From contig CBDATR010000009.1 of NCBI GenBank assembly GCA_965200155.1, forward strand, positions 64,001 to 128,000: a stretch of DNA of 64,000 nucleotides, read 5' to 3'. This document shows, piece by piece, positions 2,231 to 51,019 of the stretch. The notes below the pieces were generated by a model. It saw only the letters and a program-made list of their open reading frames with translations. It ran no database searches and was not told the DNA's origin. Numbering within the stretch: position 1 is the stretch's first letter; every line of letters starts with the position of its first letter. Source of the DNA: Nitrosopumilaceae archaeon (GTDB taxonomy: Archaea > Thermoproteota > Nitrososphaeria > Nitrososphaerales > Nitrosopumilaceae). Both the position numbers and the translations under genes were made by a program.

Positions 2231-2764
2231 TCATGAGGCTGGATTCCAGAGATGCTCCGGTATGTTATCATCATGGTTGACCTTTCGGGCCAGCACGAAC
2301 AGAAAGTCAGAGAGACGGTTTGTATAGCGAATACATTCGGGGTTTATGTGCTCACTCTCTGGTATACTGGTGATGTGGGTCTCGGCGCGCCGGACTATAG
2401 CCCTAGCCAAATGTAGTGCAGAGCCGGTATGGCCGCCGCCGGGCAGTATAAAGTTGGTCAGGGCTGGCAGTGTTGCATCCATTTTATCAATCATCCTCTC
2501 CAGAGAGTCGGTCATGGATGCGGTTACCTGCATGCCAACGTTATCGGGATTTGAGAGGTCTGCGCCCAGTATGAATATGTCCTTTTGAATGGAATGGATT
2601 ATGTCACGAACGGTTTTAGTTGAGTTGCAAGCGGCAAGTCCCAGCATGGCGCTGGCCTCATCCAGTGTACCGTATGCCATAATGCGGGGGTCTGATTTTG
2701 GGACCCGTTGGCCGCCGTACAGTCCCGTGTGGCCGGAATCGCCGGTCTTTGTGTATATCTTCAT
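2231..2764 (-). CDS. pduO: ATP:cob(I)alamin adenosyltransferase, PduO type
   Basis: Signature MKIYTKTGDSGHTGLYGG, GTLDE, FILPGG, HLARAIVRRAE and NRLSDFLFVLAR. The start is trimmed to ATG 2764. Confidence 0.93.
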   Translation of the reverse strand: MKIYTKTGDSGHTGLYGGQRVPKSDPRIMAYGTLDEASAMLGLAACNSTKTVRDIIHSIQKDIFILGADLSNPDNVGMQVTASMTDSLERMIDKMDATLPALTNFILPGGGHTGSALHLARAIVRRAETHITSIPESEHINPECIRYTNRLSDFLFVLARKVNHDDNIPEHLWNPAS

Positions 2765-2815
2765 GTTTGGAATGGTGTGGAGAGTGATATTAAATTTATA
2801 AGAGAAAGTGAATTT

Positions 2816-4618
2816 ATGATGGTGATGAGTAAACTTGGTATAGAACAGGTTGCAGGGAAGCGTATACCGGATGTGAACTGGTCCCGAATGGAGGAAGCCA
2901 ATGATTTTGCAGAGACAGTAAAAAAATTCCGCCAGGGCCAGTATCCGGAAGACATGTTCCGCCGGTATAGATTGCAGCATGGCGCGTACGGGACGCGCAT
3001 GACATCAGACTATGCAATGATACGCATCAAGATACCCGCGGGCCAGGTATATCCCATACAGCTAAAGAGGATTGCGGAGATGAGCGAGTACTTTTCAATT
3101 GGTAGTGCTCACATATCCACTCGGGAGAGTATACAACTACACTGGGTGGTATTAGAGGATGTATCAGAAGTGTTGCGGGGGTTGTCAGAAGTAGGCCTGA
3201 CATCAAGGGAGGCCTGTGGCAATGCCATAAGGAATGTAATGTGTAGCCCTACTGCCGGGGTGTGCCCCAGGGAAGCCTTTGATGCCACTCCCTATGCCAA
3301 GGCGACTGCCAAGTTCTTTTTGAGAAACCCTATGAACCAGAATCTGCCCCGGAAATTCAAGTTCACATATTCCTGCTGCGAGGAGCACGGTATGGCAAGG
3401 ATAGTGGACGTGGGATTGATACCCCAGACCAGAATGGTGAATGGCAAGACACAGCGGGGCTTTAGAATATTTGTGGGCGGCGGCTTGGGAAACAAGTCCT
3501 ATGTGGGACACCAGCTGGAGGAGTTCACACCCCAAGAGAATGTCATATATACGGCCATGGCGGTGGTCAGGCTCTTTGACAGGATGGGGAACAGGACCAA
3601 TCTGGCACGTAACCGCCTGAGGTATTTGGTGGCACAGGTAGGATGGGAGAAGTTCCGGGACATGGTACTAAAGGAGCGGGACGTGGTACGAGCCACTCAG
3701 TCTGCCATAGTGAAACTGCCCCTGGAGGATTCGGAGCCGGAGATTAGGCGACCCATCAGGGTGACAGAGGAGAATCAGGGTCAGGAGCCCGGTTATGCAC
3801 GGTGGCTTACAACCAATACCTTTGCGCAGAAGCAGGAGTCATATTATACGGTGTTTGTTGCCATGGAGGCGGGTGATATTACCGCCACCCAGATTGTGGC
3901 ATTATCGGATATAATACAAGAGTATTCTGCCGAGGGTGTCGGCAGACTGGGCTTTGTACAGAATATGGCCCTGCGGTATGTGCACGAGAGCGACTTGCCG
4001 GAACTATATTCCAAGTTGTTACAGAATGGGTTGGCTCGGTCCGGTGCGCTGAGCATGGCCGCACCCATAGGGTGTTCCGGGACCACTTCCTGTAATCTGG
4101 CGCTGACAAACTCGCACAGATTGGCAAAGGAGATACAGCGAAAATTCCTGGAGCTTGGACTGGACCAGGATGATGACTTGCGGGAGGCCAGCATAAAGAT
4201 AAGCGGTTGCCCCAACTCGTGTGGTCAGCATGGCATAGCCACTGTAGGACTGTTTGGTGGCGGGGGCCGGTTGGGCCATGACATGTATCCCTCATATATG
4301 ATGTCCATAGGGGGCAGGGCGGATCAGGATGCCATGCTAGGACATAATATGTTAAGGGTACCGGCAAAGCGCGTCATACCGGTGATATTGGAATTGGTAG
4401 CAATGTTCCGGGAGAGCAAGAATGATAATGATGATTTAAAGACATGGATACACCGTGTCTGTATGGGTGCGGATTCTATGACGGTACAGGATATACGGAA
4501 GCGGCTCAGCACATTGACCAATCCGCCCACCATGGAGGAGGATCCTGACTTTTACGCAGACTATGGTAGTGATACGTCATATCACACCAAGACCGGTCGT
4601 GGCGAGTGCGCCGCGTAA
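2816..4618 (+). CDS. Ferredoxin-dependent nitrite/sulfite reductase (siroheme, 4Fe-4S)
   Basis: FRRYRLQHG, STRESIQLH and LPRKFKF motifs, plus the siroheme/Fe-S cysteines CSGTTSC and SGCPNSCGQH. The start is ATG 2816 or 2825. Confidence 0.92.
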   Translation: MMVMSKLGIEQVAGKRIPDVNWSRMEEANDFAETVKKFRQGQYPEDMFRRYRLQHGAYGTRMTSDYAMIRIKIPAGQVYPIQLKRIAEMSEYFSIGSAHISTRESIQLHWVVLEDVSEVLRGLSEVGLTSREACGNAIRNVMCSPTAGVCPREAFDATPYAKATAKFFLRNPMNQNLPRKFKFTYSCCEEHGMARIVDVGLIPQTRMVNGKTQRGFRIFVGGGLGNKSYVGHQLEEFTPQENVIYTAMAVVRLFDRMGNRTNLARNRLRYLVAQVGWEKFRDMVLKERDVVRATQSAIVKLPLEDSEPEIRRPIRVTEENQGQEPGYARWLTTNTFAQKQESYYTVFVAMEAGDITATQIVALSDIIQEYSAEGVGRLGFVQNMALRYVHESDLPELYSKLLQNGLARSGALSMAAPIGCSGTTSCNLALTNSHRLAKEIQRKFLELGLDQDDDLREASIKISGCPNSCGQHGIATVGLFGGGGRLGHDMYPSYMMSIGGRADQDAMLGHNMLRVPAKRVIPVILELVAMFRESKNDNDDLKTWIHRVCMGADSMTVQDIRKRLSTLTNPPTMEEDPDFYADYGSDTSYHTKTGRGECAA

Positions 4619-4769: not shown

Positions 4770-6419
4770 ATGGCTATGGCCGTAAATGATATTATGATAC
4801 CGGTTCGGATGTTGACGCAGTATGTTTATTGTAACAGGTTGGGGTATATGGAATGGTTACAGGGTGAGTTTGAGACGTCAACAGACGTGGAACAGGGCAG
4901 ATTCGTGCACCGCAATGTGGATACCATATCCGGTACAAAGAAAATCCAGCAGGATGGGGAGATACACGCCACATCCGTTATGATATCGGATGTGAAACTT
5001 GGGCTGGTAGGAAAGCTGGACTTGCTTGAGATTGAGGGTCGCGCCGCGGTGCCAGTAGAATACAAAAAAGGCAAGGTACCCGATATCCAAGGAAATGTGT
5101 ACGATAGTACACTGGTGCAGGTTTGTGCGCAGGCACTACTCTTACGCGCAAACGGTTACAAGTGCACCGAGGGCGTGGTATATTATGTGGCGTCACGGCG
5201 CCGGGTTCGCGTGATTATAGATGACATACTGATAGCAAAGACTTTGCAGGCCATATGGGACCTAAAGGAGATGGTCAAGAAGAATATCATACCGCCACCT
5301 TTGGTGGATAGCCCAAAATGTCCGCGGTGTTCACTGGTGGGCATATGTCTTCCTGACGAGGTAAATCTGTTGTCAAACCAAAAGATAAAGGTAGACTCGG
5401 TGCGTCGTATGTATCCCATCAGGGCAGATGCAGTTCCAGTACATATACAGGAGCAGGGTGCATCTGTCTCTGTAACAGGAGATACGCTACAGGTGAAATC
5501 TACCGATGGGCAGAAACGGAAAATACGCATAATCGACGTGTTGGACTTGACTGTATATGGTAATGTTCAGATAACCACACAAGCACTACGTCGCTTGCTT
5601 GAGCGTGGCATATCCGTTTGCTATATGACATATGGAGGATGGTTCGTGGGCATGACCAACGCGGGTATGAACAGGAATATCGATTTGAGAATCCATCAGC
5701 ACAGGGTGTATGATGACAAGATTTCATCGCTAGATATATGCAAAAATATTGTTTATGGTAAGATAAGAAACTGCATGACGCTCTTGAGGCGCAACCACAA
5801 GTCTGATGCTACCAGGGTATTGGGAGAGATGTCGCAGATGGCAGATAAATCTCGGGGATGTAAAAAATACGAAACGCTCCTAGGTATAGAAGGAATGGCC
5901 GCCAGACTGTATTTTTCAAATTTTGCCGGTATGCTGAAAGACGATTCGGGGTTTGATTTTAAGCAGAGAAACCGGCGGCCGCCCAAGGATCCCGTTAATG
6001 CCATACTGTCGTTTTTGTATGCGTTGCTGGCCAGGCAAGCGACAGTTACCGTGATGGGGGTGGGGCTGGACCCATATATCGGGTATCTACATACGCCACA
6101 TCATGGCCGTCCATCACTGGCTCTGGATATGATGGAGGAGTTTCGCCCAATCATATGCGATAGTGTGTGTATTAGTATGATAAATAATTCCATGCTTGTC
6201 CCATCGGATTTTACAGATGCGGCCATGGGCGTATCGATGACGCAGAACGGACGGCGACGGGTTCTGGATGCCTTTGAAACACGCATGGACACTACCATAA
6301 AACACGAGATACTGGGTTACTCGGCAAGCTACAGACGCATACTGGAGACGCAGGTAAGGCTGCTGGCAAGGCGTGTTACAGGAGAGATACAAGCATACCC
6401 ACCTTTCAGGGTGAGGTAG
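4770..6419 (+). CDS. cas1: Cas4-Cas1 fusion (type I-G/I-U adaptation)
   Basis: N-terminal Cas4 RecB motif (GKLD..VEYKKG, Q..AQ.LLL) with Fe-S cysteines (YC; KCPRCSLVGIC). C-terminal Cas1 motifs GIEGMAARLYF, RRPPKDPVNAILS and LALDMMEEFRP. Confidence 0.95.
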   Translation: MAMAVNDIMIPVRMLTQYVYCNRLGYMEWLQGEFETSTDVEQGRFVHRNVDTISGTKKIQQDGEIHATSVMISDVKLGLVGKLDLLEIEGRAAVPVEYKKGKVPDIQGNVYDSTLVQVCAQALLLRANGYKCTEGVVYYVASRRRVRVIIDDILIAKTLQAIWDLKEMVKKNIIPPPLVDSPKCPRCSLVGICLPDEVNLLSNQKIKVDSVRRMYPIRADAVPVHIQEQGASVSVTGDTLQVKSTDGQKRKIRIIDVLDLTVYGNVQITTQALRRLLERGISVCYMTYGGWFVGMTNAGMNRNIDLRIHQHRVYDDKISSLDICKNIVYGKIRNCMTLLRRNHKSDATRVLGEMSQMADKSRGCKKYETLLGIEGMAARLYFSNFAGMLKDDSGFDFKQRNRRPPKDPVNAILSFLYALLARQATVTVMGVGLDPYIGYLHTPHHGRPSLALDMMEEFRPIICDSVCISMINNSMLVPSDFTDAAMGVSMTQNGRRRVLDAFETRMDTTIKHEILGYSASYRRILETQVRLLARRVTGEIQAYPPFRVR

Positions 6420-6587
6420 GTTGCGAAGCCTGTATATGCCCTCCACAAACTTGGCGGCGCTACTGTGCCGGAACACCTTTCAGGGTGAGGTAGGTTGCGA
6501 AGCCTGTATATGCGACTCAGGAGATGCCCGGTATCATAATGGTGAGGTATCTTTCAGGGTGAGGTAGGTTGCGAAGCCTGTATATGC
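6403..6587 (+). CRISPR. Non-canonical mini-array: 3 identical 37-bp repeats made of the cas1-stop/cas2-start junction, with 2 unique 37-bp spacers
   Basis: CTTTCAGGGTGAGGTAGGTTGCGAAGCCTGTATATGC occurs at 6403-6439, 6477-6513 and 6551-6587, with unique inserts at 6440-6476 and 6514-6550. The structure is seen directly; the CRISPR origin is inferred. Confidence 0.75.
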
Positions 6588-6844
6588 TATGTTATGATGT
6601 GCGCGATCCAAAAAGACTGAACAAAGTATACAAGATGATGAATGGGTATGGGGATCCGGTGCAGTACTCGGTGTTTTTGTGTGATTTAAGCGACACCGAA
6701 ATGGTATACATGAAGCGAGATTTGACAGAATTGCTGAATTTGAATGAAGACAGGGTAATTATTGTGAATACGGGAAAAGGTGATAAAATACAGACCATGG
6801 GCGAACCGCTAAAACACAGTCGTGAATCGGCAATCATAGTATAG
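6569..6844 (+). CDS. cas2: CRISPR-associated endonuclease Cas2
   Basis: YMLCYDVRDPKRL..V.K..GYG..VQYSVF.C motif, 91 aa, TTG start, located between cas1 and the leader. Confidence 0.93.
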   Translation: MRSLYMLCYDVRDPKRLNKVYKMMNGYGDPVQYSVFLCDLSDTEMVYMKRDLTELLNLNEDRVIIVNTGKGDKIQTMGEPLKHSRESAIIV

Positions 6845-7010
6845 CGAGAGGCCGGGTGCCAGGGTAGTCGTGTAGTGATAATCGCTAAATAACCATATAT
6901 AGTATGACCGTATTGTACGATTATGGCGGAGGCTGAACAAAACAAACGTAAAACATATGTAATTCTTATGAATTGGAAAGTATTGTTATGATGTTGTTAA
7001 CCTGCGCAGT
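6845..7010 (+). promoter_or_regulatory. Putative CRISPR leader
   Basis: Non-coding, AT-rich stretch between cas2 and the first repeat. The degenerate repeats lie at the opposite end of the array. Confidence 0.7.
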
Positions 7011-16000: not shown

Positions 16001-19000
16001 TCCGCAGCCTAACGGTTGCGGCCTCATTGAAGGTTAGTCGCTGTATATCTCGATATAATTTACCTAATGGGGATTTCCGCAGCCTAACGGTTGCGGCCTC
16101 ATTGAAGGCAGTTAGGAGCCATGCGGTATATTTGTGGTACAATAATTTCCGCAGCCTAACGGTTGCGGCCTCATTGAAGGAATTTGCTGGGCGTGCCTGC
16201 TCTTGCGACTCTATCTAATTTCCGCAGCCTAACGGTTGCGGCCTCATTGAAGGAGGACGCAGGCAGGGCGATATATGATGACAGCATATAATTTCCGCAG
16301 CCTAACGGTTGCGGCCTCATTGAAGGGTTGAGTGGTTTGATAATTTAGGATTGCATGGTGTATATTTCCGCAGCCTAACGGTTGCGGCCTCATTGAAGGG
16401 TGCGATGTATCTGGTTTGTTTTGGAGCGCTGTTATAAATTTCCGCAGCCTAACGGTTGCGGCCTCATTGAAGGCACATATCTGTAACCACATTGCTCGCA
16501 CTCAAAAGCAAATTTCCGCAGCCTAACGGTTGCGGCCTCATTGAAGGGCCGATTCATATTCCGTAAGAAGGTATAGCAGTGAAACATTTCCGCAGCCTAA
16601 CGGTTGCGGCCTCATTGAAGGATTACCCGCGGGAACAAAAACCAATGTGGCAATTAATTTCCGCAGCCTAACGGTTGCGGCCTCATTGAAGGTATTCCCC
16701 AAGGTGTCAATCGACGTAAAGAAAGTAGAATTTCCGCAGCCTAACGGTTGCGGCCTCATTGAAGGATGAATTACAGTTGGATCTTAATGAAACTGAACGT
16801 GAATTTCCGCAGCCTAACGGTTGCGGCCTCATTGAAGGATATTGTAATTAAGTATACATCTATATATGCCAGGCAATTTCCGCAGCCTAACGGTTGCGGC
16901 CTCATTGAAGGGCATCGGCCCAGGCACCACAGTCACATCTCTTTTTGATTTCCGCAGCCTAACGGTTGCGGCCTCATTGAAGGGTCTTTGTGGCGCGGCT
17001 CAAAACTAGTGATGTGTCCTATTTCCGCAGCCTAACGGTTGCGGCCTCATTGAAGGGGAACCAAAAGTCACGACGATATGTCGCACTTAGTATAATTTCC
17101 GCAGCCTAACGGTTGCGGCCTCATTGAAGGTATTTGCCGTGGTCACTGGCGGCAACATACTTACCCGATTTCCGCAGCCTAACGGTTGCGGCCTCATTGA
17201 AGGGCGGCGCGCCTGGCAATACAATCGGGGCCGCGGGCCTTGATTTCCGCAGCCTAACGGTTGCGGCCTCATTGAAGGGTGGAGCTGTTGGGGCTGCTAA
17301 CGGCGCCACAGGTGATTTCCGCAGCCTAACGGTTGCGGCCTCATTGAAGGCACATGGCGGCGGATCAATTGAGCAAATATATTCCAATTTCCGCAGCCTA
17401 ACGGTTGCGGCCTCATTGAAGGCAACCACCTGGTCGTCAAATATCACGGCCGCTGGCGATTTCCGCAGCCTAACGGTTGCGGCCTCATTGAAGGATTGAT
17501 CGCATGAATGAAGTGGCCGCTTATTGGCAAAATTTCCGCAGCCTAACGGTTGCGGCCTCATTGAAGGGATCTCGTGTTGTTTGTCTATTACCTCTGCCGA
17601 TACAAATTTCCGCAGCCTAACGGTTGCGGCCTCATTGAAGGTACGCGATTTGTTGCGTGGTTTTTTGACCAACACCCTATTTCCGCAGCCTAACGGTTGC
17701 GGCCTCATTGAAGGGACGTGGCCTCGGAAAAAAATGGCGTATGACAAAAGGCATTTCCGCAGCCTAACGGTTGCGGCCTCATTGAAGGTTTCCAGTATGT
17801 AATTCCACCGGGTGCGTTCTCGTAATTATTTCCGCAGCCTAACGGTTGCGGCCTCATTGAAGGTACTGTCCAACATCCACCACCGCCAATACTTCATAAT
17901 TTCCGCAGCCTAACGGTTGCGGCCTCATTGAAGGTTATCATCATGAGCATAATAGACGCGGCCAGTGTATTATTTCCGCAGCCTAACGGTTGCGGCCTCA
18001 TTGAAGGGTCTTTCCTTGCCATTGAATGGGATCTTTACATATACATTTCCGCAGCCTAACGGTTGCGGCCTCATTGAAGGGCCTCTATGAGTGCTTCTTT
18101 AAGGACTTTGTTAGTATAATTTCCGCAGCCTAACGGTTGCGGCCTCATTGAAGGTACCAAGTTGGGATGCTGCTTCGCGACTGCCTGATACAATTTCCGC
18201 AGCCTAACGGTTGCGGCCTCATTGAAGGTGGGTTATACCTACACCGCTCACATGCCTGCTCTATTATTTCCGCAGCCTAACGGTTGCGGCCTCATTGAAG
18301 GAGTAAGGCAGGGGGCGTGTGGCAAGGGGGGGTAATAGATTTCCGCAGCCTAACGGTTGCGGCCTCATTGAAGGTCTGGAGCACACAGTGCACTCAACCA
18401 AATGGCAAGATATTTCCGCAGCCTAACGGTTGCGGCCTCATTGAAGGTCTCAACAGCCGACGACGATCGCGAGGTATACGAGATTTCCGCAGCCTAACGG
18501 TTGCGGCCTCATTGAAGGTCAACCATTTCGGCCAATAAAATGTTCGATTTTTCAATTTCCGCAGCCTAACGGTTGCGGCCTCATTGAAGGGTAATGGTGT
18601 TGTTACCATTTCACCGGTATTTGGGTCATTTCCGCAGCCTAACGGTTGCGGCCTCATTGAAGGAATGTACCTTTGATTACGATACATTGCCCTATTTGTA
18701 TTTCCGCAGCCTAACGGTTGCGGCCTCATTGAAGGAATGTACCTTTGATTACGATACATTGCCCTATTTGTATTTCCGCAGCCTAACGGTTGCGGCCTCA
18801 TTGAAGGTAACGGTCACGCACACATTCGCGGCGGGGGAGGCCAATTTCCGCAGCCTAACGGTTGCGGCCTCATTGAAGGATCCCCATTATTGCTATGTTG
18901 TATTTGACTCGTATTATTTCCGCAGCCTAACGGTTGCGGCCTCATTGAAGGTTGTGATGAGGATATATTTCATGACACGATCCCGCCGATTTCCGCAGCC

Positions 19001-25000: not shown

Positions 25001-28000
25001 CGGCCTCATTGAAGGTCGTTACTTGCCAAGACCCACGGATCGCCCTGATACATTTCCGCAGCCTAACGGTTGCGGCCTCATTGAAGGGCATTGTGGTGTG
25101 TCAATAAAGGATAGATCACCTCATTATTTCCGCAGCCTAACGGTTGCGGCCTCATTGAAGGAAGGCCATCTGCGACCTCCTCCAATAGATCGTCAAAATT
25201 TCCGCAGCCTAACGGTTGCGGCCTCATTGAAGGGGTTCAGAGCCACGTGGGTAGTCGTTGAGGATGATTGATTTCCGCAGCCTAACGGTTGCGGCCTCAT
25301 TGAAGGTCCGTGCCAATCCGTCCACTTCATCGCTGTATGGAGTATTTCCGCAGCCTAACGGTTGCGGCCTCATTGAAGGAAAGCCACTCACTTCGGACTT
25401 GACAATTTCTGAAAAATTTCCGCAGCCTAACGGTTGCGGCCTCATTGAAGGATGCCGCCCCATGAGTCGTCGTCGGTTCGTGTGGCTAATTTCCGCAGCC
25501 TAACGGTTGCGGCCTCATTGAAGGTCCTACTATGATGAATGCTGGTGCTCGATTAGGACAATTTCCGCAGCCTAACGGTTGCGGCCTCATTGAAGGTAAG
25601 ACGCCGCGAATATGTGGATATGGAGCAGTTCAATTTCCGCAGCCTAACGGTTGCGGCCTCATTGAAGGAAAGGGATTTGGATGTTGCCGACGATGCATAT
25701 TTGCTATTTCCGCAGCCTAACGGTTGCGGCCTCATTGAAGGAATCGCGTGCATTATATAGCACAGACATATGTGGACGCATTTCCGCAGCCTAACGGTTG
25801 CGGCCTCATTGAAGGTCGCATGGCGGCGGGACCGTGGGTGATGTATATTCTATTTCCGCAGCCTAACGGTTGCGGCCTCATTGAAGGGGGGCGCCGCAAA
25901 ATGTCATGGCCACGGGGGGTAATGATTTCCGCAGCCTAACGGTTGCGGCCTCATTGAAGGTCTACTGCATTATCTTCTTTTTTAACTTCTTTTTCATATT
26001 TCCGCAGCCTAACGGTTGCGGCCTCATTGAAGGATATGTAATGATATGTATTTACATAATGGTGATATATATTTCCGCAGCCTAACGGTTGCGGCCTCAT
26101 TGAAGGGGCTTTAAATTCTCCCGATCGTGGGCGCGTTCGTAATATTTCCGCAGCCTAACGGTTGCGGCCTCATTGAAGGATACCACTTTGTGGATCCATT
26201 CCGAATTTTGAATTTGATTTCCGCAGCCTAACGGTTGCGGCCTCATTGAAGGCACATTATTATCTGAGTATAATCCGGCAAGAGAAGGATTATTTCCGCA
26301 GCCTAACGGTTGCGGCCTCATTGAAGGATGGCAAATTAGAGGATGCTGGGCGCGCCATATATGATTTCCGCAGCCTAACGGTTGCGGCCTCATTGAAGGT
26401 GGCACTGAGTTATTTGATTATTCAACCGATCAATTATTTCCGCAGCCTAACGGTTGCGGCCTCATTGAAGGGGGTGAAAATTCATCATTAAATATATCGG
26501 TACATATATTTCCGCAGCCTAACGGTTGCGGCCTCATTGAAGGAACATTCAGTTTCTTTGCACTCCCACGTGTATATATAATTTCCGCAGCCTAACGGTT
26601 GCGGCCTCATTGAAGGAAGAAATTAATGACAAATTAGATTCGCTATTATGCAGATTTCCGCAGCCTAACGGTTGCGGCCTCATTGAAGGGTGCCCGGCTT
26701 GAATGATCTATTAGACACAGCGTACGATTTCCGCAGCCTAACGGTTGCGGCCTCATTGAAGGATTATCCACCATGAGCATGCTATTTATCCAATAGACAA
26801 ATTTCCGCAGCCTAACGGTTGCGGCCTCATTGAAGGATGGAGCGACGGGGCGTGCCGACACACGCGTGGATGCATTTCCGCAGCCTAACGGTTGCGGCCT
26901 CATTGAAGGCATTTCCACCCGTAATGATTGTAACAATGTCACTATTAATTTCCGCAGCCTAACGGTTGCGGCCTCATTGAAGGTAGGGATTATGTCGCTC
27001 AATATGTGCGAGACGAATTAATTTCCGCAGCCTAACGGTTGCGGCCTCATTGAAGGCCAGTATATTTTGCCTTTAACTTATCGATACCATCAGATTTCCG
27101 CAGCCTAACGGTTGCGGCCTCATTGAAGGTTGCGGCGAGGACATGCAATACTCCGGTTGGTATGACATTTCCGCAGCCTAACGGTTGCGGCCTCATTGAA
27201 GGTACTCAATCAGCTCTATACTTTGACTGGGTATTGCCATTTCCGCAGCCTAACGGTTGCGGCCTCATTGAAGGACGTCGCGGCCTGATCCGCATATGTT
27301 TCAGAGACTGTTAATTTCCGCAGCCTAACGGTTGCGGCCTCATTGAAGGTATAATGTTGGAATGCAATAAATCCCTTGGTGTTGAGATTTCCGCAGCCTA
27401 ACGGTTGCGGCCTCATTGAAGGTTGCCTGATCCCGACACAAGCACGTTAACGATTGAGAATATTTCCGCAGCCTAACGGTTGCGGCCTCATTGAAGGGTA
27501 ATTCAGCGTATCGTTTACCGCTTGGCCAAAGAATAATTTCCGCAGCCTAACGGTTGCGGCCTCATTGAAGGTACGTATTTGAGGCATATGAAGAAAAATA
27601 CCCGACATATTTCCGCAGCCTAACGGTTGCGGCCTCATTGAAGGCAAACATAGAGCACAAACGGCGAATGAAAAAAAGGAAGATTTCCGCAGCCTAACGG
27701 TTGCGGCCTCATTGAAGGAACACAGGCATGACGCAATTGGCAATTTGTAGGTGATATTTCCGCAGCCTAACGGTTGCGGCCTCATTGAAGGTGGTGGGGT
27801 TTGATCCCGGTTCAAAATATCATAATAAGATTTCCGCAGCCTAACGGTTGCGGCCTCATTGAAGGCGTCGGCATATGAGTCCAATACCACACCGGATAAA
27901 CCCATTTCCGCAGCCTAACGGTTGCGGCCTCATTGAAGGGAAGGAGTGGAGGAAGTGGGGCCCGACGCCGCAGAGATGGATTTCCGCAGCCTAACGGTTG

Positions 28001-28102: not shown

Positions 28103-29062
28103 CTATATACGTGTGGTCTGGGAATTACTCCATATCACCTCAGCAGGGCCAAATGTACCATAACCACCCTCCTTTGTACGACGTATTGGTGCGCCCATTA
28201 TTTTTGTAATGCCCCAAGAATCAAACCATTTTGCTCTCTTTGATTTAAAATGAGTTCCAACGTTTCGTTTTTTGGAACGTTCACCCACAGCAGGTTTGTA
28301 AAAAGAATGTGCGAGGAGGGATCTTGTGACGTTGATAGTGGTAGGACGATCCCAGATTGGCCAAGAATAATAACCACATTTCCATTTACCAGAACAACCT
28401 TGCGTGAGTGTTCCCTTTTTACCTGGAAACACAGGATGCATGCTGAGTCCTAAAACTGCTAGTGCTTCAGGTCCAGGATTGATGCGTTTTTTTCTGTCAC
28501 TTGGGTTTTCTGCCATTAATGCATATATACGCTCATCAGCTATATCCCATTTCAGCGAACTCAACTCGCAGTTATCATACTTCCACGGACCACAGAGTCC
28601 AGTATGAATATCTGCATCAGTAACATGATTCAATATATTGCGGGCAATTTCCAGAAATTTCTGTTGGCCTGCCGAAAAGTAGAGATCAGAAGGTTTTGAC
28701 TTGCCAGATCTATCTAAACTTCCCTCTGCCAACAATGCACAAGCAAGCGATCCACCACCCTCTTTTTGCGCATCTTTCAGATATTTACGGATATCATCAG
28801 CCGCCAACTTCAACTCATCGCCCTTTTTGATGTTGGGCTTCATTGCTGGCGAGTTCTTCCATTCTTCAAATACTCGTTGCGCCTGTTTTACAACTTCATC
28901 AACAGTGAATTTCTGATCAATTGTTGCATATGGTATCACACCACCCGACCACCATAAACGGGGCTGGTCTTTCTGTCCAGCATATGCAACCTGTATTCCA
29001 AGGGCAGCCAAGAACCCTAGTGGATTTGTACCATCTAGACCTCTTAACTGTAATCCGTTCAT
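28103..29062 (-). CDS. csb3: Type I-G large-subunit-like protein (Csb3/Cas8u-type)
   Basis: N-terminal LRGLDGTNPLGFLAALG, AGQQKFL and WPIW motifs. It is the last gene of the csb1-csb2-cas3 operon and overlaps the cas3 stop by 4 bp. Confidence 0.75.
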   Translation of the reverse strand: MNGLQLRGLDGTNPLGFLAALGIQVAYAGQKDQPRLWWSGGVIPYATIDQKFTVDEVVKQAQRVFEEWKNSPAMKPNIKKGDELKLAADDIRKYLKDAQKEGGGSLACALLAEGSLDRSGKSKPSDLYFSAGQQKFLEIARNILNHVTDADIHTGLCGPWKYDNCELSSLKWDIADERIYALMAENPSDRKKRINPGPEALAVLGLSMHPVFPGKKGTLTQGCSGKWKCGYYSWPIWDRPTTINVTRSLLAHSFYKPAVGERSKKRNVGTHFKSKRAKWFDSWGITKIMGAPIRRTKEGGYGTFGPAEVIWSNSQTTRI

Positions 29063-31836
29063 CGGGCGGCCTCTTCACTACTTATTTGATGATCTGCCAG
29101 ACGCACAATAGCTTCAAGCCATGCTAATCCATAGTAGCCATACTTTGCAACGAGATTCCAAAATCTGTCTGCCATGTCAAGAGCTAGCATTTCATCAAAT
29201 TTTGTGGACGTGGATAATTCCTGACCTTCGAAATTGTAGCACAATCTCTGATTATTTTCATCCTTAATAACAGGTGGCAATGGTCGCCCATGCCCATGAT
29301 GAGTGCCGATCAGATGTAATACTAGATCAGAGTCATGTGCGTTGGCAAGTACTTCTTCGCATGAAGCAACCATTGCCATACTAGCGATTTCATGGCGCAT
29401 GCCTCTTGGATAATGGTACACCCTAGGGATACCGGGTAATGATTTGGCCAACGGTTCACCCAGCTTTGCCATCTCAATCAGATCACCGCCTACCAATTGC
29501 ATTTGGAATCGTCTATCCACCTTGCCTATGTCATGTAGTCGACCTGCCAGCCCGATGTCGTCCACAATCTCCTTCGGCAAGCCAAGACATTTCGCCACAT
29601 AAACTGCCTTGTTACCTACTCGTTCAAGATGCTGATTTAATGTCATGCCAGATCCAGTTCTCCACCTCGACTCTTCTGCACCATCCATGCTTACGGTGGT
29701 ATGCTGGTGTTTTGTCTTGCTGGCAGGTTTTTGTATCAGGATGTAATATTTGGTATTAGCATCCACCACATCTATGCAAGACATCTTGACATCATCCAAC
29801 TTGTATTTTTTAATCGGAGTTTGATGCTCAACTTCTTGTGCACGCATCAGCCACTGTCTAATCTGTTCCTCTAGGTTAGAATCAGGATCTGGGTCCTGGC
29901 TCGGTGTGGGCGGCGATTTCCACAGGTCTGGATGTAGTCTGAGAGTACTAGGATTCACTAGATCCCCTATATCGCTTACTGGTACATCTGATTCAGGATC
30001 CCACGTTCCCTCTGTTAGACCACCACGGCTTGGATCCACTACAAGCACATCACCGGCCCGAACATCACAGGTATCTATGGTCTCTGGCTTATCCTTTATG
30101 CCATTCCATCTCACCAAGTCTTTGCTAGCCTTTATACCATCTGTTTTTGTGTGTACAACTTTAGATTTTCCTGCGGAACTGGTTTTTCCACCTTCAGGAT
30201 CTGTGGTGGGTATGTCTGCAGTTTCTACTTCCGGCTCCCCAGCAAGCCACACCTTGGCCGCATTTATTGGCACCTGTAAAAATTCAGCCTGGTGGGGATG
30301 AACCTTCTCAAGTCCTTCTTGAGTTCTGTCAACGCGCCAAAGAATAGACACATCAATGCTTGTATTTGTGCCAATGCCATGCAGAAACGGTTCAATGCTT
30401 GGTTGTGTGAGCGGTTCGGGATTGGTTTGGACCCATGCATTCATGTAGGTTTCCAATAGCAAGGGTGCATTGGGTTTGTCCATAACTGCATCCTCTGGAA
30501 AATCGCGCATGTCTTTTGAATCTAGTTCTATGGATTCTGCGCCAGCTAGCCGTTTCTTCAATTCCTTCCATGTCTCTTTGACCGAATCACTGTAGATAGG
30601 ATCTGGTTTTTTGGATCCTACTACTGTCTTGGGCCCGATGATGTATGCTTTGGCAGGTATGCCCTGACTGGACAGTTTGCCCCTCCGATCAAGACGTCCG
30701 AATCTCTGGCGTATACTGTCTATTGATGCGCATTCGGTTATTAGTGCTTCAAAATTAAAATCTGCGCCAACTTCTATCGCCTGAGTAGAAACAATCACTA
30801 CAAGACCATCTGGATCACGGTCAGGATTAATTTTGTTCTGTATGTTCTCAACAACATTTGCTTTGTCATACGGTCTCATGCGTCCAGTCAGAAGATGAGT
30901 TTCGGCAAGTTCTTTGATCTCATTGTAAGTCTGTCGTGCAGTACGCACTCTGTTTACAATTACGCCTATGCTGCGTGGACCATGCTCTTGTGCCTTAATC
31001 TGGCTTACAATCTTTGCCACTTTCTGCGGTATGTGATCAGGACTGGCAACGTCTATGAGTTCTACTTCTTTTTTGGCCTCAACACGATGACGCAGTTCAT
31101 CACAGCCTGCCAGATCCGTATCATAGTCCAGCGTGAATCTGTCGGTACTATTGCCGTCTGGCGTTGCAGACATCTTTACAACATGAAACCGTCTAGGCAG
31201 TATGCTGGTGCCAGCTCTACTAATTTCAGACAGCGTCTCTGCAAAAGGAGCACTCAGATGCACTTCGTCTAGAATAACCAGACAGTCATTGCCTGCCAAA
31301 CCTGCATATATAGAACGCATCTTTGGGCGCACACCATAACCACGGAACAGTAGTCTAGAGCCAAATTGATCCACAGTAGATACTACTATCCATGGCCTTT
31401 CCGGCCGCGCCGACCATTCTCGGTCTACTGGGATTCCACCCCGCAGGGAAGATATGCCAAGATCTGCGGCGCCAAGCGACTTTAATCGCTCCCGTATCTT
31501 GAGCAGTGTGGGATTGTTAGCCTGCTTGATCCCCTCACGGATCTTTTCCGCTCTTTTGTATACCTGATCAACAACTATACGACGATCTATAACGAATACC
31601 ACACGTCGTGGAGATTCTCGTGGTCTTGCCGCCAATACAAACACTGCCGTATCCAACACGGATGTCTTTCCGGTTCCGGTGGGTAGATCAATCACATGTG
31701 GCCAGCCGTCATTTAGTACTTGCCTGGTCAGACGAACCTGCCACGGAAATGGTTTCTGATTGTGTATGGCGTAGAAAAATTCTTTAAAATCGTCTTCGGT
31801 CAGATCGTGTTTAGATGATGTGGAATGTTCAGACAC
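29059..31836 (-). CDS. cas3: Type I-G Cas3 helicase with C-terminal HD nuclease
   Basis: PFPWQ, DLPTGTGKT, DRRIVVDQ, STVDQFGSRLLFRGYG, DEVH and QRFGRLDR motifs, with a C-terminal HDIGK/RHE/HHGHGRP HD domain. Confidence 0.95.
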   Translation of the reverse strand: MSEHSTSSKHDLTEDDFKEFFYAIHNQKPFPWQVRLTRQVLNDGWPHVIDLPTGTGKTSVLDTAVFVLAARPRESPRRVVFVIDRRIVVDQVYKRAEKIREGIKQANNPTLLKIRERLKSLGAADLGISSLRGGIPVDREWSARPERPWIVVSTVDQFGSRLLFRGYGVRPKMRSIYAGLAGNDCLVILDEVHLSAPFAETLSEISRAGTSILPRRFHVVKMSATPDGNSTDRFTLDYDTDLAGCDELRHRVEAKKEVELIDVASPDHIPQKVAKIVSQIKAQEHGPRSIGVIVNRVRTARQTYNEIKELAETHLLTGRMRPYDKANVVENIQNKINPDRDPDGLVVIVSTQAIEVGADFNFEALITECASIDSIRQRFGRLDRRGKLSSQGIPAKAYIIGPKTVVGSKKPDPIYSDSVKETWKELKKRLAGAESIELDSKDMRDFPEDAVMDKPNAPLLLETYMNAWVQTNPEPLTQPSIEPFLHGIGTNTSIDVSILWRVDRTQEGLEKVHPHQAEFLQVPINAAKVWLAGEPEVETADIPTTDPEGGKTSSAGKSKVVHTKTDGIKASKDLVRWNGIKDKPETIDTCDVRAGDVLVVDPSRGGLTEGTWDPESDVPVSDIGDLVNPSTLRLHPDLWKSPPTPSQDPDPDSNLEEQIRQWLMRAQEVEHQTPIKKYKLDDVKMSCIDVVDANTKYYILIQKPASKTKHQHTTVSMDGAEESRWRTGSGMTLNQHLERVGNKAVYVAKCLGLPKEIVDDIGLAGRLHDIGKVDRRFQMQLVGGDLIEMAKLGEPLAKSLPGIPRVYHYPRGMRHEIASMAMVASCEEVLANAHDSDLVLHLIGTHHGHGRPLPPVIKDENNQRLCYNFEGQELSTSTKFDEMLALDMADRFWNLVAKYGYYGLAWLEAIVRLADHQISSEEAAR

Positions 31837-33466
31837 TGTGATTTACCTCTGGTATGACAGGGCGCATCAATCCAAGCCCAAAGAATCTGCCAGTTCCTAT
31901 CAGCAGAGGCCCGCTCACGGGTCGCTCAAAGGTGATCGCTGCATGTATCAACTGCCGTCTGACACTACCGCCCAAACCCGTCTTTTGTATGAATGGAGGA
32001 AAGCGGTTTACTGCATATGCGCCTGTGATAAAAGGTGTAAGACTGACTTCAACGCTTTTTGGTTTTGGAATGCCCACATGCTTACATGCATCCTTTACAG
32101 CAGACTTTGCCTTGGCCCATGCCATGACGCGTTTATGCATACTACCGCGCGCTAGATTGCCCGGATGCCTTGGCAGTGCAATAGGGGTTGCAGATACCCA
32201 CAAGTGAGAGGGTTTTTTCCAGATCTCTTGACGTAGTGATGTGAGGGAAGCCGTACCGCGAAGTCTAGAAATGTTTGTCTCTCCAGTAGCACCCATTGTC
32301 AGTTTCATACGTCCAGGTTGTATCTCTTTTTCCCACTCGGCAATAGAATGGATTATTGCATATCGAGAATCGCTATCTAATGATGTGGGTACGGATATGG
32401 CTATTCCCAAGAGTCGGCCATCGGAATGGCCAAATCCCACATATGGTAATGGGACAAATGCCACATGTGATGGATTAAGGGTAGGAGAGCCATTGGATTT
32501 GTGTCCGCTGAGTCCTTCTGGTATATTTTTGGCATATCTGAATATTGCAGCCCTCATCGTTTTAGCCAGATCTACGACTCGGGTTGAGGGTAGTACACGG
32601 GAGCCTCGTTCAAATTCAAACACATACCACTCGCCAGCAGTATTAGGAATATCAGAAATCATCTGGGAACTGGTCCGGTCATCTTTCGTATACACGGTAT
32701 TCACACAAGGAAGTGGACGTAATTTAGATCCTTCGTGATATATGTATAGTCGTTCCAATTCTTTCAGCTGACCACTGCTGACATTGCGCAGCAGATCATT
32801 GCCCGCATTGAGTCCAAGTTGGGGCTTCCAAGTTGGTTCTGGGGGATCAGAAAAAATCCTGCACGACACCAATGACGAAGCATGACCAAGTCTGGCCACA
32901 CGCGCCAATATAGCATCCATGGCATTGCGTACATGTACATCAGGACTGTCCTCCTGTACATCCCAAGCGTATACGACATGTGGATCATAAGGGGTAACCG
33001 ATGGGAAGAACCGCTCTTGTTTGGGGCGATGATCCGGCAACAGCCCCATAGCTGACTTTACAGTAGTTCTACCAGCATCATCTGTCAGTTTCTTGATACG
33101 TTCCAAATTCTCTGGCGTAGTACCAGTCAATCTTTCCTGAGCGTGTAATTTTGTATGATCGAACAGATTCTTGTACTTTGTTCTGGAGATAATTTCGGTA
33201 TCGTTTACTGGTACAAAATGTGATACTACCGTGCGGGTGGTGTAATCCGAGGCGGTAATCGCAGGAGGATCCTGCATCTCCAGCCATTCAAGTGATTGGC
33301 GTTCCATTATATCAGGACTGTCAGTATCAGCCCATGAGGCAACCATTGCAGAGAACAGTCGCGCCGGATGTGGGGGCCACTCTGCCGCATCTCGGCGGTT
33401 GTAGTATGTGGCAACATATCTGCCAGTAAGAAGCGTCACCTCAATGCAGAATTTGGAAGTATCCAT
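31829..33466 (-). CDS. csb2: Csb2 (Cas5/Cas6 fusion), type I-G
   Basis: EWPPHPARLFSAMVA, LGHASSLV and WVSATP motifs, with the C-terminal Cas6 G-loop GPLLIGTGRFFGLGL. Confidence 0.92.
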   Translation of the reverse strand: MDTSKFCIEVTLLTGRYVATYYNRRDAAEWPPHPARLFSAMVASWADTDSPDIMERQSLEWLEMQDPPAITASDYTTRTVVSHFVPVNDTEIISRTKYKNLFDHTKLHAQERLTGTTPENLERIKKLTDDAGRTTVKSAMGLLPDHRPKQERFFPSVTPYDPHVVYAWDVQEDSPDVHVRNAMDAILARVARLGHASSLVSCRIFSDPPEPTWKPQLGLNAGNDLLRNVSSGQLKELERLYIYHEGSKLRPLPCVNTVYTKDDRTSSQMISDIPNTAGEWYVFEFERGSRVLPSTRVVDLAKTMRAAIFRYAKNIPEGLSGHKSNGSPTLNPSHVAFVPLPYVGFGHSDGRLLGIAISVPTSLDSDSRYAIIHSIAEWEKEIQPGRMKLTMGATGETNISRLRGTASLTSLRQEIWKKPSHLWVSATPIALPRHPGNLARGSMHKRVMAWAKAKSAVKDACKHVGIPKPKSVEVSLTPFITGAYAVNRFPPFIQKTGLGGSVRRQLIHAAITFERPVSGPLLIGTGRFFGLGLMRPVIPEVNHSV

Positions 33467-34716
33467 TATTCGTCGCTAGACATATCTTTGGAAACCTTAC
33501 GACTGCGCCGGATCAGTTCCAGTAGTTTTGGTGCCGGAACCAGCGCGAGTTTGTCGTTATCTGTTTCCCATCCTAGGCCCGATTCGGCAGCGCGGGTTAC
33601 GGCCATATCCAATATCTCTGTAGTACTGGTTTGGGTTAGATTCACCGGAATGTTTGAGCCGTCTCTCTTTAATAGCTCAATAGTTGGCTCGCCGGTAGGA
33701 ATTAAAAGACAACGTGAGCGCAGATCATAATCATTCGCGTATTGATATGCTATAGCTGCAATACCCAATGCGGCAATGGCCGTGCGTGCATTTATGGATG
33801 CCTCAGCACTGACATCTTTGAACTGCAGACGGCGCAGAGAAACAAAAGATAACAAAATTGTCTGAAGAGCTCCGGATATAGTAACGCCGCCAGATGTAGA
33901 ATCTATTTGAGGTGGTATATTACCATGGTTTATCTTGGAAGGTTGACCGGGCTTACCATCAGAGCCACGGGCTGCATATACCGGTTTTTTATGTTTATCT
34001 TTCTCTGCCTCATCTTCTTCGGTAGTCCATACCTCATCTTTGTTGTTATGATTGTATATACGATCCTCATCAGCAAGTCTTTCTATTTGTAGGGGATCAA
34101 TACGACTAGATACTTTGACACCCACACTGGCATCAAAACCCATAATTTCGGATACATAAGATCGTTGGAACTTGGATCCCAAACCGCCTTTTGGGCCAGT
34201 GGAATCCCACATCCCAAACAGAATAGATGTGGGCGAATATTTGTACAAGGCTATTGCATTACGGGGAGTAGTATTAGTAATAGCCCGACCCACATCTGAC
34301 AGGCGAAATAATGTGCCATCCAAGAGACTGTCCCGGAATATAGCATCGGCAATCCGGTGCGGAGTTTCCAGTACGGTCAGCTTTTCATAGTCGATGTCTT
34401 CGTGTTGGGTAAAATCAACATATGGAACAGGAAACTTCAGGGCACCAGATTTCCACCCATCCAACAAGGCTAGTTCTGCTCGGTTGGCTTCCGCAGCTAC
34501 TGAATTGAGCAGAACTGCTGTTTTGCCCGAACGATCTTCTATAGCATATTTTGTCTTTTCGTTGGGTCCAACCAAGTATGTAGGTGGGAATACCTTATCG
34601 TCGGTACCACCTGCTGGTTGCAGACTTGTACTAGAACGCAAAGCCACAGCACCGCCAGAGACTGCCTCTCGCAGTTGTTCGTATGTAATATCCACATTCA
34701 TCACACCATTAGGCAC
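33466..34716 (-). CDS. csb1: Csb1 (Cas7 backbone), type I-G
   Basis: LQPAGG..DKVFPPTY, SV..EANR.E, PHRIADA, PTSILFGMWDS, HGNIPP and LRSRCLL motifs. Confidence 0.93.
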   Translation of the reverse strand: MPNGVMNVDITYEQLREAVSGGAVALRSSTSLQPAGGTDDKVFPPTYLVGPNEKTKYAIEDRSGKTAVLLNSVAAEANRAELALLDGWKSGALKFPVPYVDFTQHEDIDYEKLTVLETPHRIADAIFRDSLLDGTLFRLSDVGRAITNTTPRNAIALYKYSPTSILFGMWDSTGPKGGLGSKFQRSYVSEIMGFDASVGVKVSSRIDPLQIERLADEDRIYNHNNKDEVWTTEEDEAEKDKHKKPVYAARGSDGKPGQPSKINHGNIPPQIDSTSGGVTISGALQTILLSFVSLRRLQFKDVSAEASINARTAIAALGIAAIAYQYANDYDLRSRCLLIPTGEPTIELLKRDGSNIPVNLTQTSTTEILDMAVTRAAESGLGWETDNDKLALVPAPKLLELIRRSRKVSKDMSSDE

Positions 34717-34875
34717 TATTTATAGTATAACAAGCATGTATGACCATATCTACTTTGGGAACATACACATGATGATTAAGTTTTGGCGGGCCACACATCA
34801 AGACACATGCTAATTTAGATAGTGGATCCTGTTCTGTCCGTTTGAATCTTTGGTAGCATGGGATGCTCAACGGCA

Positions 34876-35360
34876 GTATGAGTTCACGTGATTGGTGTAA
34901 CTGCATTCTATTACAGAAAGGCCCGGTGTGGACTTTATCTGGCCGGGAATCATCCCCGGAACATGTCCATGAATGATTCCATCCCTTCTGCAGAATGGCT
35001 CCGGCCTCAATTTGAGCGAACGGCTTTGATCCGGGCGTGATCGGGATCTATACCCGGGTATCACACAACTGGTACTCTTTAGTCATCAAACCGGCTGTAC
35101 TCCCCGGTAACCGTCCATTGCATCATCCAAATCTAGGAACGATTCCCCGCCATTTCGCACACATGATTCTTTGGAACCATTACTGGAACCAATTGGACCG
35201 CATACACATTCTAGTTCCGTTATGTGTACTCTGTGGGAATAGGATATGCGCCAGCCTTACTGTTTTTCACTGCTGCTTGAGGGATTGGATATGAGTCAGG
35301 TTATGATTACCAACTAAACGCATACACGTTCCTGGAAGGGTTCATCACGTGAACTCATAC
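34876..35360. mobile_element. Non-autonomous element bounded by TIRs GTATGAGTTCACGTGA (larger relative of the MITE; IS1595-like remnant)
   Basis: 16-bp perfect inverted ends. The interior is homologous to 56100-56660. No TSD seen. Confidence 0.7.
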
Positions 35361-35363
35361 ATA

Positions 35364-36637
35364 AACTTGGTTTAAACGTGTAAGGTGGGGCAAGTGATTC
35401 TGCGCATACGGTCCAATATCACGGAAATTATGGACAGATATTTTGCAAAAATTTCTTGTATCTGGTATGCTTGTGCATAATGTGCAAATTATGCAACCCG
35501 GATACTACGAGTAGATCTTCCCGGAATTCATCACGACTACCATCATATACCTGACTTAATCTACGATATACCTTTAGCATTCGAATTACATGCTCGATTA
35601 ATATGCACCTTTTTGATATAGTTTGGTTGTATTTCCTTTCAGTTTTAGTGAGGGATTCCCCACTCCTGTATGGAATTATGACCTTTGCGCAGGGTAGGAA
35701 GTCTTTCATCCCCTGGTATCCTGCATCTGCTATTACTGTTATCTTATCAGATGGCGGCGTGGTTGATTCTTTTAGGGACTTGCCACCGAGGGGAATATCA
35801 TTCTTGAATATACCATAATCGTGTCTTTTTCCCTCATATACTCCACTGATGTGAATTATCAGTCTTGTTTGATGTGTTCTGTACGTTGTATGGGTGGGTT
35901 TTTTGTTTACCAGAGTACATTGCCTCGTGATTTTTTTCAGGACGTTGTACGCGTACATGTGTCCTGCCAGTCTTTATCTCCCCTCCGGCTCGGCCTGGAA
36001 CAATTTCCTTAAAGTCCGATGCTGACTTGATTTGTGATATTGCTTTTGCAACGGTATAGGCCGTTGGGAGTATCTTGATCAGTCCCTGCTTTGTAAACTG
36101 GATGTAACGACATATGTTTGACTGGTTTATCTTGAGTATTGCTGCCAGCAGCTCCTGCTTTGTATTGCAGCGCAGACGTATCAGTGTAACTAAGAGTACA
36201 TGCCTAATGGAAACGTGCCCGCGATCATTTGTAAACTCCATGAATCGCCGTGCATCATCGCCTTCCGTGGACTCTACGTATTCTGGGAACTGGTTAGTAT
36301 CCATTTGAACTCTTCCGGGGCACATCCGGTCAGGGAATGAAGCTGATCCTTGCGTTCTATGATGTCATCAAGATTTGAAACGAGGGCATTCTTTGTTTGA
36401 GCTTCAAGTTCGCCATGCAGGTTTGTTACTTCGGCCTCGGTGCGTAGCCGGTTGTACTCTGTGACTAACTGCTCCTTGGTGAGTTCTTCTGCTTTTAGCA
36501 TACCTGGTACTACAAAATTAGGTCTTTTCTGTTTCACACGAGTCTGTGGGAAAACCCATGATACTAGATCAATTGCTCGCATCTAACAACTTGGTTTAGA
36601 CGTGCAGAGTGGGAGAAGTGATTCTGCGCATACGGTC
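35364..36637. repeat. 50-bp imperfect direct repeat pair (35364-35413 and 36588-36637)
   Basis: AACTTGGTTTA.ACGTG.A..GTGGG..AAGTGATTCTGCGCATACGGTC, 44/50 identical by manual alignment. Confidence 0.85.
35428..36582 (-). pseudogene. IS5-like (DDE_Tnp_4 + HTH) transposase, frameshifted into three ORFs
   Basis: HTH-like LLVTLIRLR..KQELLA..L.INQSNICRYI and the motifs YSGKQK, G.RHD, ADAGYQG and YNQ.ISK..IEH..LK. It is flanked by 50-bp direct repeats. Confidence 0.8.
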
Positions 36638-36752
36638 TAATGACAAGGATGGAAATCCCCGAGCCACCACAGATGTGATAAGAAATGAGCACCGTTTTCT
36701 TTAGAGCGATTCTTTGAGCTGGTTAATCCCGGCTGTAATTTTAACAATGGGA

Positions 36753-50910: not shown

Positions 50911-51019
50911 CTCTCTATCAGCGCAATGACGTCTTTCCGTTTCATGTCAACCCCGTAATGGCGATAGAAGTGCCCACCTGATCTCTCTATCAGCGCAATG
51001 ACGTCTTTCCGTTTCATGT
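50911..51019. repeat. Perfect 37-bp direct repeat flanking a unique 35-bp insert
   Basis: CTCTCTATCAGCGCAATGACGTCTTTCCGTTTCATGT occurs at 50911-50947 and 50983-51019. The intact paralog has a single copy and no insert at ~46525-46560. Confidence 0.93.

Follow-up and report, generated by a model that had tools for sequence, protein, structure and literature searches.

Spacer-sized host DNA between exact repeats at a type I-G cas4/1-cas2 junction in a Nitrosopumilaceae archaeon, and a genome-wide class of similar structures

[quoted passage not shown] The locus in question is of type I-G and lies in a 64,000-nucleotide (nt) stretch of a Nitrosopumilaceae archaeon (GenBank assembly GCA_965200155.1, contig CBDATR010000009.1, positions 64,001 to 128,000, forward strand; the whole stretch is called the window, and positions without a contig name refer to it). 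It holds a cas4/1 fusion gene, cas2 and a long main array, and the structure considered here occupies the cas4/1-cas2 junction. An initial annotation, made from the letters alone, proposed that the integrase encoded at the locus had inserted spacers twice into its own operon. Here, we report a computational analysis of the junction, of its counterparts in related genomes and of similar structures elsewhere in the same genome, from which we infer with high confidence that the junction was formed by two off-target spacer integrations, the probable catalyst being the resident type I-G Cas4/1-Cas2.

Structure of the cas4/1-cas2 junction

The 37-nt unit CTTTCAGGGTGAGGTAGGTTGCGAAGCCTGTATATGC occurs three times without a mismatch (6403-6439, 6477-6513 and 6551-6587, plus strand) at a period of 74, as the initial annotation had read it, and has no further copy anywhere in the 2.38-Mb, 51-contig genome. 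The copies enclose two 37-nt inserts, also given on the plus strand (insert 1, 6440-6476; insert 2, 6514-6550), which bear no relation to each other. The cas4g/cas1g fusion gene is complete (4770-6419, plus strand; 549 amino acids; NF049935, 710.7 bits, model positions 1-546 of 546), and its final five codons and TAG (...PPFRVR-TAG) fall within copy 1, where they are followed by G, TTG and six cas2-like codons. Copy 3 supplies the working TTG start and the initial six codons of cas2 (6569-6844, plus strand; 91 amino acids; TIGR01573). Both genes are intact, because the duplicated unit carries the end of the one and the start of the other; the unrelated inserts and the gene content of copies 1 and 3 had likewise been described correctly.

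Compared in register with the true 36-nt repeat, the unit is identical at 16/36 positions (6-11 in other registers). It folds like its shuffled controls (z 0.12), while the true repeat folds into a hairpin of 8 bp (−14.3 kcal/mol, z −2.85), and it does not contain the handle ATTGAAGG; on all three points the annotation agrees with what we find. Without hairpin, handle, leader or foreign spacers, the junction array is not a working CRISPR array.

Both inserts are host DNA. Insert 1 is an exact copy (37/37) of C10:291114-291150 (minus strand), within the gene for an archaeal-type CCA tRNA nucleotidyltransferase (CCA-adding enzyme), and insert 2 matches C24:421310-421346 (plus strand) at 36/37 positions, within a gene for a Cache-domain protein. 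In each case, identity to the source stops where the insert does, save for a single 3′-terminal base of insert 2 whose assignment is ambiguous. Spacers of the main array, too, are most often 37 nt long (101 of 286 repeat-to-repeat intervals, with 36 nt in 84 and 38 nt in 63). The annotation had held that inserts consisting of local, rearranged host sequence would speak against its proposal; the host origin turned out to be real, but the rearrangement is not local, as the pieces are spacer-sized and come from unlinked contigs, which fits capture of self spacers rather than local rearrangement. That insert 1 is identical to its source and insert 2 is one base off is compatible with, and no proof of, a younger age for insert 1, on the cas4/1 side.

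The stretch is contained in nine public sequencing runs, four of which were examined as Logan contigs: X1 (an RNA library, study P1) and X5, X6 and X8 (study P2). Every unit-insert junction (all six) was found in contigs of these four runs, and one 151-nt record of X8 covers 6414-6564, starting in copy 1, passing through both inserts and the copy between them and reaching copy 3, so the triplication is also carried by a spanning record. Depth across the insert pieces was 64.5-80.5 in X5 (flanks, 67.7 and 69.8) and 39.3-40 in X6 (flanks, 43.3 and 38.8). These contigs are built from 31-mers, to which a coexisting empty-site form is invisible, and one of the four runs may be the source data of the assembly itself. 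A 26-mer of the unit, searched against metagenome contigs for strains with other copy numbers, gave 0 matches.

For comparison, the region was searched in 41 genomes, of which 7 matched, this genome included. The junction is compact in all six same-family relatives (6/6): the cas4/1 stop is followed after 1-13 nt by the cas2 start, with a product beginning M/V-R-N-R-Y..CYDV, to which the N-terminus of the present Cas2 (MRSLYMLCYDV) aligns. In two relatives, the spacing is stop-N-start, equal to the TAG-G-TTG that is reconstructed here when the extra bases are taken out. Of the genomes searched, this one alone therefore has the 148 extra bases. In a survey of 80 diverse Cas4/1 loci, the cas1-cas2 gap was −4 to 15 nt in 59 and 43-287 nt in 14, and a clean unit-insert structure at the cas1-cas2 junction had no second case among these 80.

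Three of the 14 expanded gaps (L055, L067 and L072) hold internal direct repeats. At L072:4239-4413 (Thermoguttaceae), the 3′ end of cas1 with its stop is duplicated (64 nt, 94% identical) and a 30-nt unit is present four times; L067:2350-2458 (Sorangium) has two 35-nt copies at a period of 74 (86% identical), and L055:2632-2728 (a Schlesneria metagenome-assembled genome) has two 26-nt copies at a period of 71 (88% identical). These could be old, decayed events or something else.

Similar events across the genome

The whole genome was scanned for exact direct repeats at short spacing, with a repeat length of 33-41 and a period of 70-76 defining the event class. This gave 49 exact pairs, mostly of 36-37 nt, the two pairs of the junction among them. 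Once ordinary tandem repeats are set aside, the isolated class peaks sharply at a repeat length of 36-37 and a period of 72-74: isolated exact repeats of 30-45 nt number 3, 20, 13, 7 and 6 at spacings 71 to 75, against a background of 0-3 at every other spacing value from 46 to 200, apart from a tandem family at 82 and a small echo at 145-148 that arises from three-copy loci. The 47 events with a repeat length of at least 35 fall on 42 distinct targets. The junction is not a special site: it belongs to a class of 49 exact events, and four copies are present at another locus.

A relaxed scan added 23 diverged pairs (31-35 of 36 positions identical) at the same spacings; older events therefore exist as well. 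The total of that scan (37) is not comparable with the 49, as a span filter removed many exact pairs. Three additional events lie within the window and were confirmed by an independent tool: a 39-nt direct repeat (95% identical, spacing 75, 791/866; 791-904), a 37-nt direct repeat (97% identical, spacing 71, 1224/1295; 1224-1331) and an exact 37-nt direct repeat (spacing 72, 50911/50983; 50911-51019), the 35-nt insert of which has no other match in the genome.

Two targets are hot spots in dispersed elements. One is a 36-nt sequence in the N-terminal part of an IS66-family transposase gene (PF03050), found at 55 loci, of which 42 are single, 6 double, 6 triple and 1 quadruple. It has taken up 12 distinct inserts of 30-37 nt, with identical boundaries throughout; some are common to several copies of the element and so inherited, and others are unique to one copy. 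The other hot-spot target belongs to a different dispersed element and is present at 75 loci, of which 70 are single and 5 double; its distinct inserts number 5. Empty paralogous sites are thereby present in the same genome, 42/55 copies of the IS66 target and 70/75 copies of the second target being single. That unrelated inserts recur within the very same boundaries speaks for an enzyme that sets the cut sites.

Full-length matches to unlinked host loci were found for 23 of the 49 inserts (18 exact, 5 with one or two mismatches), compared with 0/285 for the spacers of the main array in their own genome. When the source matches of these 23 are extended to their maximum, the duplicated target measures 36 nt in 13 and 37 nt in 4. 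A permissive search of the 285 spacers against the genome returned 31 weak matches, none better than 25/37 except one of 32/37 on C25, which is itself an off-target insert. That insert, at C25:4760 and the 24th with a match, has 26 identical nt in common with main-array spacer sp_11210 at an offset of 11 nt, and the common sequence has no other occurrence in the genome; the main array and an off-target site therefore each took up the same foreign DNA once.

Contig C10, which makes up 22.7% of the genome, is the source of 12/23 self-derived inserts (binomial p 0.002; sources from 28035 to 414241, a spread of ~390 kb), and may be a preferred source region of prespacers. On C24 (352098-352298), two events overlap, the second target beginning 21 nt inside the second copy of the first; an earlier product was therefore itself struck again, at a shifted register.

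Only ten of the 49 events fall inside an open frame of 150 amino acids or more, and 7 of these 10 have the in-frame period of 72. Over the whole class, the period is divisible by 3 in 25/49, compared with 35% expected from main-array lengths (p 0.015). These biases are signs of selection. At the protein level, an in-frame event reads as LASTKKDLAHYK, 12 residues, and LASTKKDLAHYK again.

The same scan of 400 kb from each of two Cas1-positive genomes of the same genus detected no such event: the G005 sample had zero isolated repeats, and the G006 sample had 26, all of them coding tandem or low-complexity repeats. The first 400 kb of C10 and of C24 in the present genome gave 8 and 10 events.

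Mechanism, alternatives and the resident locus

The genome has a single Cas1 match, the Cas4g/Cas1g fusion, and the integrase, Cas4g/Cas1g plus Cas2, is full length; that this enzyme catalyzed the events is what we infer. At the cas4/1-cas2 junction, it would attach a ~37-bp prespacer by its two 3′ ends to opposite strands of the chromosome, at points 37 bp from each other. Gap repair would then duplicate the intervening 37 bp, giving unit-insert-unit, and a second event at one of the copies would give unit-insert-unit-insert-unit. As the unit has neither the hairpin nor the 3′ handle, the array would probably yield no processed CRISPR RNA, and its self-derived inserts would be harmless. The same process, acting across the chromosome, would account for at least 49 recent events and for the hot spots in two dispersed repeat elements.

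The proposal of a double integration within the integrase's own operon is strongly supported at its core, by inserts of modal spacer length, their distant host sources, the empty junctions of relatives, ~47 like events and the overlap with sp_11210; the points that call for correction are the standing of the site, which is not special, the host origin of the inserts, which does not refute the proposal, and the reading of the motifs. For the genome as a whole, we consider it likely that Cas4/1-Cas2 acts as an insertional mutagen and as a source of new arrays, with at least 49 recent and ~20 older insertions, stacks of up to four copies, some insertions in frame within genes and one site in the IS66-family transposase gene struck again and again, and that its inserts, not being expressed as CRISPR RNAs, preserve an unselected intake, 47% self (23/49) compared with 0/285 in the working array. 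If this is true, the contrast would be a direct natural measure of how strongly autoimmunity purges self spacers.

As for what the integrase recognizes, the mean best identity of targets to the CRISPR repeat is 13.63, compared with 12.31 at matched random sites (standard deviation 0.256, z 5.2; the observed mean is slightly too low, as a single event, with L = 33, received a score of −1). By a contiguity statistic, the junction unit is in the top 0.035% of genome positions. TTTC at positions 2-5 together with GGTTGCG at 17-23, a pattern defined after the fact, is found outside the main array only at the junction, at C24:127323 and in an orphan repeat on C43. The annotation had suggested that these motifs mark bases read by the integrase; the 42 distinct targets do not bear this out, since they are modestly enriched only in C5, C11 and C26 (z 2.8-3.3) and not at 17-23. 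The specificity of the integrase is so far best described as loose, with a few favored sequences.

A candidate protospacer adjacent motif (PAM) at the junction inserts is TTG, which lies immediately 5′ of the source of insert 1 and precedes the source of insert 2 on the opposite strand. The chance of TTG beside both inserts is 0.0013, and that of TTN is 0.017. The PAM evidence is weak and is not a pillar of the off-target integration that we propose.

Several observations weigh against that proposal. Among the 23 source loci, TT at −3/−2 on either side was found at 7 with minimal boundaries (p 0.006) and at 5 with maximal boundaries (p 0.077), with 2.3 expected, a weak signal from which no clear PAM emerges; overlapping main-array spacers make three 5′ flanks readable, TGC, GTG and CAG (0/3 TTN). 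The TTG beside both junction inserts may be a coincidence, and if it were a PAM, it would put the two inserts in opposite orientations. The unit is 37 nt long and the repeat 36 nt. Overall identity to the repeat was rejected as the reason for the choice of site, as ~37,000 genome positions score at least 16/36, and no mimicry of the leader was found 5′ of the unit (17/80 positions identical in register). Having Cas4/1 is not in itself enough for such events, as the two sampled Cas1-positive relatives show none, and the controls consist of Cas1-positive genomes only. Read support covers the junction alone, the other 47 events being drawn from the assembly. Finally, the genome is 87.6% complete, and the missing part could hold another integrase or the loci from which the 25 unmatched inserts came.

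Could the triplication be an artefact of assembly or sequencing, absent from the organism? Short-read graphs do branch at the unit, which exceeds the length of a 31-mer, and the best DNA runs may be the source data of the assembly. All six junctions, however, are present in four runs of two studies, one record spans the structure, and insert depth equals flank depth in X5 and X6; nor would an artefact flank pieces from two other contigs, each exactly 37 nt long, with exact duplications of 37 nt. We give an artefact almost no credence. A tandem duplication by slippage or unequal recombination, or template switching with filler DNA, would involve no CRISPR enzyme; slippage can yield direct repeats, and the inserts are host DNA. 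Such a process is very improbable given that the inserts have no relation to the unit and originate on other contigs, with microhomology of only 0-1 nt at the ends at the junction; that duplications of 36-37 nt and inserts of 35-38 nt recur across 49 loci, with the lengths of CRISPR repeats and spacers; and that identical boundaries are reused with different inserts.

The annotation had also named an old, conserved element of related type I-G loci as a contrary outcome; a candidate would be a regulatory mini-array between cas1 and cas2 that resembles CRISPR RNA genes, of the CreR/CreTA type. The 14/80 Cas4/1 loci with a gap of 43-287 nt, three of them with internal direct repeats, are what such an element might look like. 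The compact junction of all six same-family relatives goes the other way, as do the short gaps in 59/80 surveyed loci, the identity of the three units and of insert 1 with its source (so the event is recent), the lack in the unit of the hairpin and handle needed for processing, and the match of the inserts to host genes over their full length instead of to a promoter in part; a conserved element has only a very slight chance of being correct. The array might instead be functional or under selection, for example, by tuning the expression of cas2. A 48-codon open reading frame (ORF; 6421-6567, plus strand) opens with the TTG in copy 1 and is closed by the TAG in copy 3, one base 5′ of the cas2 TTG, with the stop-G-TTG geometry retained at either end; it may relay translational (termination-reinitiation) coupling to cas2, as far as its geometry indicates. 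By composition-based arithmetic, the probability that the frame fits and stays open over all 48 codons is ~3%. Every unit copy, however, already contains the cas2 start context, which makes a relay unneeded, and dozens of like events elsewhere are without such a feature. We regard a selected function as unlikely, and two off-target integrations by Cas4/1-Cas2 as the preferred explanation of the junction.

The main type I-G array follows on the same strand as cas4/1 and cas2, behind a 166-nt leader (6845-7010, plus strand). It has 287 exact 36-nt repeats and 2 degenerate terminal ones (289 in all; 7011-28087, plus strand, the end coordinate calculated from the array sequence), with spacers of mostly 36-38 nt. 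The effector genes, coding for a Cas3-extension protein, Cas3g, Csb2 (Cas5/6) and Csb1/Cas7g, converge on the array from its other side (28103-34716, minus strand; NCBIfam matches above cut-off); the adaptation module has none on its own side, and a NirA/sulfite-reductase-like gene (2708-4618) stands directly 5′ of cas4/1. The type I-G gene set found thus comprises the Cas4/1 fusion, Cas2, Cas3g, Csb1/Cas7g and Csb2 (Cas5/6). Cas8g/Csx17 (TIGR04113) was not found in this genome at its 87.6% completeness, and was found in the same-genus genomes G001 and G009 (positive control). The place 5′ of csb1 where cas8g would be expected (34716-36753) holds only short ORFs and a fragment of an IS5-family transposase gene (35428-35958). 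Possible readings are an impaired interference or a divergent large subunit.

The whole main array had no match in phage and plasmid collections, and four spacer cores had none in viral_contigs. The spacer at 25525-25560 is 84-89% identical to a coding sequence (...PTMMNAGG...) in nine genomes of other genera of the family and is unmatched in its own genome; these matches were rejected as protospacers, being conserved coding homologues, and the probable origin of the spacer is a housekeeping-gene homologue that was foreign or carried by a mobile element. The array has one exact duplicate spacer pair (sp_18664/sp_18736; 18664-18771) and overlapping or variant spacers from the same targets, such as sp_17131/sp_20046 and sp_21940/sp_24869/sp_15599, which by their sequence point to repeated sampling of a few invaders. 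Elsewhere, C43:128228-128264 (minus strand) carries an orphan degenerate true repeat (33/36) after a remnant of the last ~40 nt of the leader, with no spacers, and C22:9852-9979 and C22:30274-30378 resemble, at 74-76% identity, the 3′ portion of cas2 and the beginning of the leader; the C22 fragments are remnants of other CRISPR-Cas loci.

Significance and relation to known systems

If the events are confirmed, the junction is a clean natural example of a CRISPR-like array born from ordinary DNA in the integrase's own operon, with neither gene broken. The ~42 natural targets and 23 sources would reveal the target and prespacer preferences of a type I-G integrase, and the inserts would allow a natural comparison of unselected and selected spacer repertoires. 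A CRISPR integrase would then be able to insert ~24 residues in frame into proteins and to disrupt insertion sequences. There is also a warning for annotation, as CRISPR finders may call such two- and three-repeat structures arrays.

Two other kinds of host-matching CRISPR sequence can be compared with the present case. Self-targeting spacers are spacer sequences of host origin within CRISPR arrays; the present host-derived inserts, by contrast, lie outside any functional array, and none of the 285 spacers of the main array is self-derived. In mini-arrays like those of CreR/CreTA, degenerate cognate repeats flank a spacer with a partial match to the promoter or toxin RNA; the unit here is instead a coding junction and not a degenerate repeat (16/36), and its inserts are full-length matches to coding genes.

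For a Cas4/1-Cas2 module from Geobacter, the consulted parts of Almendros et al. 2019 (PMC6547450) give a TTN PAM 5′ of the protospacer and spacers of mostly 36 bp, and those of Dhingra and Sashital 2023 (PMC10504553) state that in type I-G adaptation, the PAM end of the spacer adjoins the upstream repeat. Set beside these excerpts, the present case has the same Cas4/1 fusion with Cas2, spacers of ~36 bp and TTG on one flank of both junction inserts; it differs in having no leader-repeat site, a weak PAM enrichment (5-7/23) and would-be opposite orientations.

Integration at sites outside an array has been obtained in vitro with Pyrococcus furiosus Cas1-Cas2, which, in the sections available of Grainy et al. 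2019 (PMC6698737), used repeat-like non-CRISPR plasmid sites with cuts 30-31 bp apart, for a 30-bp repeat. As far as those sections go, the likeness extends to targets that loosely resemble the repeat, paired cuts at repeat length or one base more and a leader that is not needed. The difference is that the P. furiosus sites were on plasmids in vitro and that mid-repeat bases 16-22 were critical there, whereas positions 17-23 are not enriched in the 42 targets here.

The nearest precedent is the 'neo-CRISPR' of Nivala, Shipman and Church 2018 (Nat Microbiol 3:310), described for Escherichia coli type I-E with overproduced Cas1-Cas2, as relayed by passages that cite it (PMC7054753, PMC11788318, 10.1101/148544); according to the same passages, its natural evidence is only circumstantial and concerns two other species. 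On their account, the two cases have in common a spacer-sized insert between duplicates of a repeat-length non-CRISPR target, repeat hits that build a small array and dependence on Cas1-Cas2, the last of which would apply here by analogy. They differ, so far as these passages describe neo-CRISPR, in that the present case concerns a natural archaeal genome and a type I-G Cas4/1 fusion, with about fifty recent events and older ones, hot spots in dispersed elements, one site in the cas operon and half of the inserts self-derived. Within the literature searched, a query on ectopic or off-target integration listed no natural genome-wide case, and the term neo-CRISPR turned up in a single preprint. 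Off-target integration by Cas1-Cas2 is thus of a known kind; what is new is its setting and scale: a natural archaeal type I-G system with about fifty recent events, a site in its own operon, hot spots in mobile elements and 47% self inserts.

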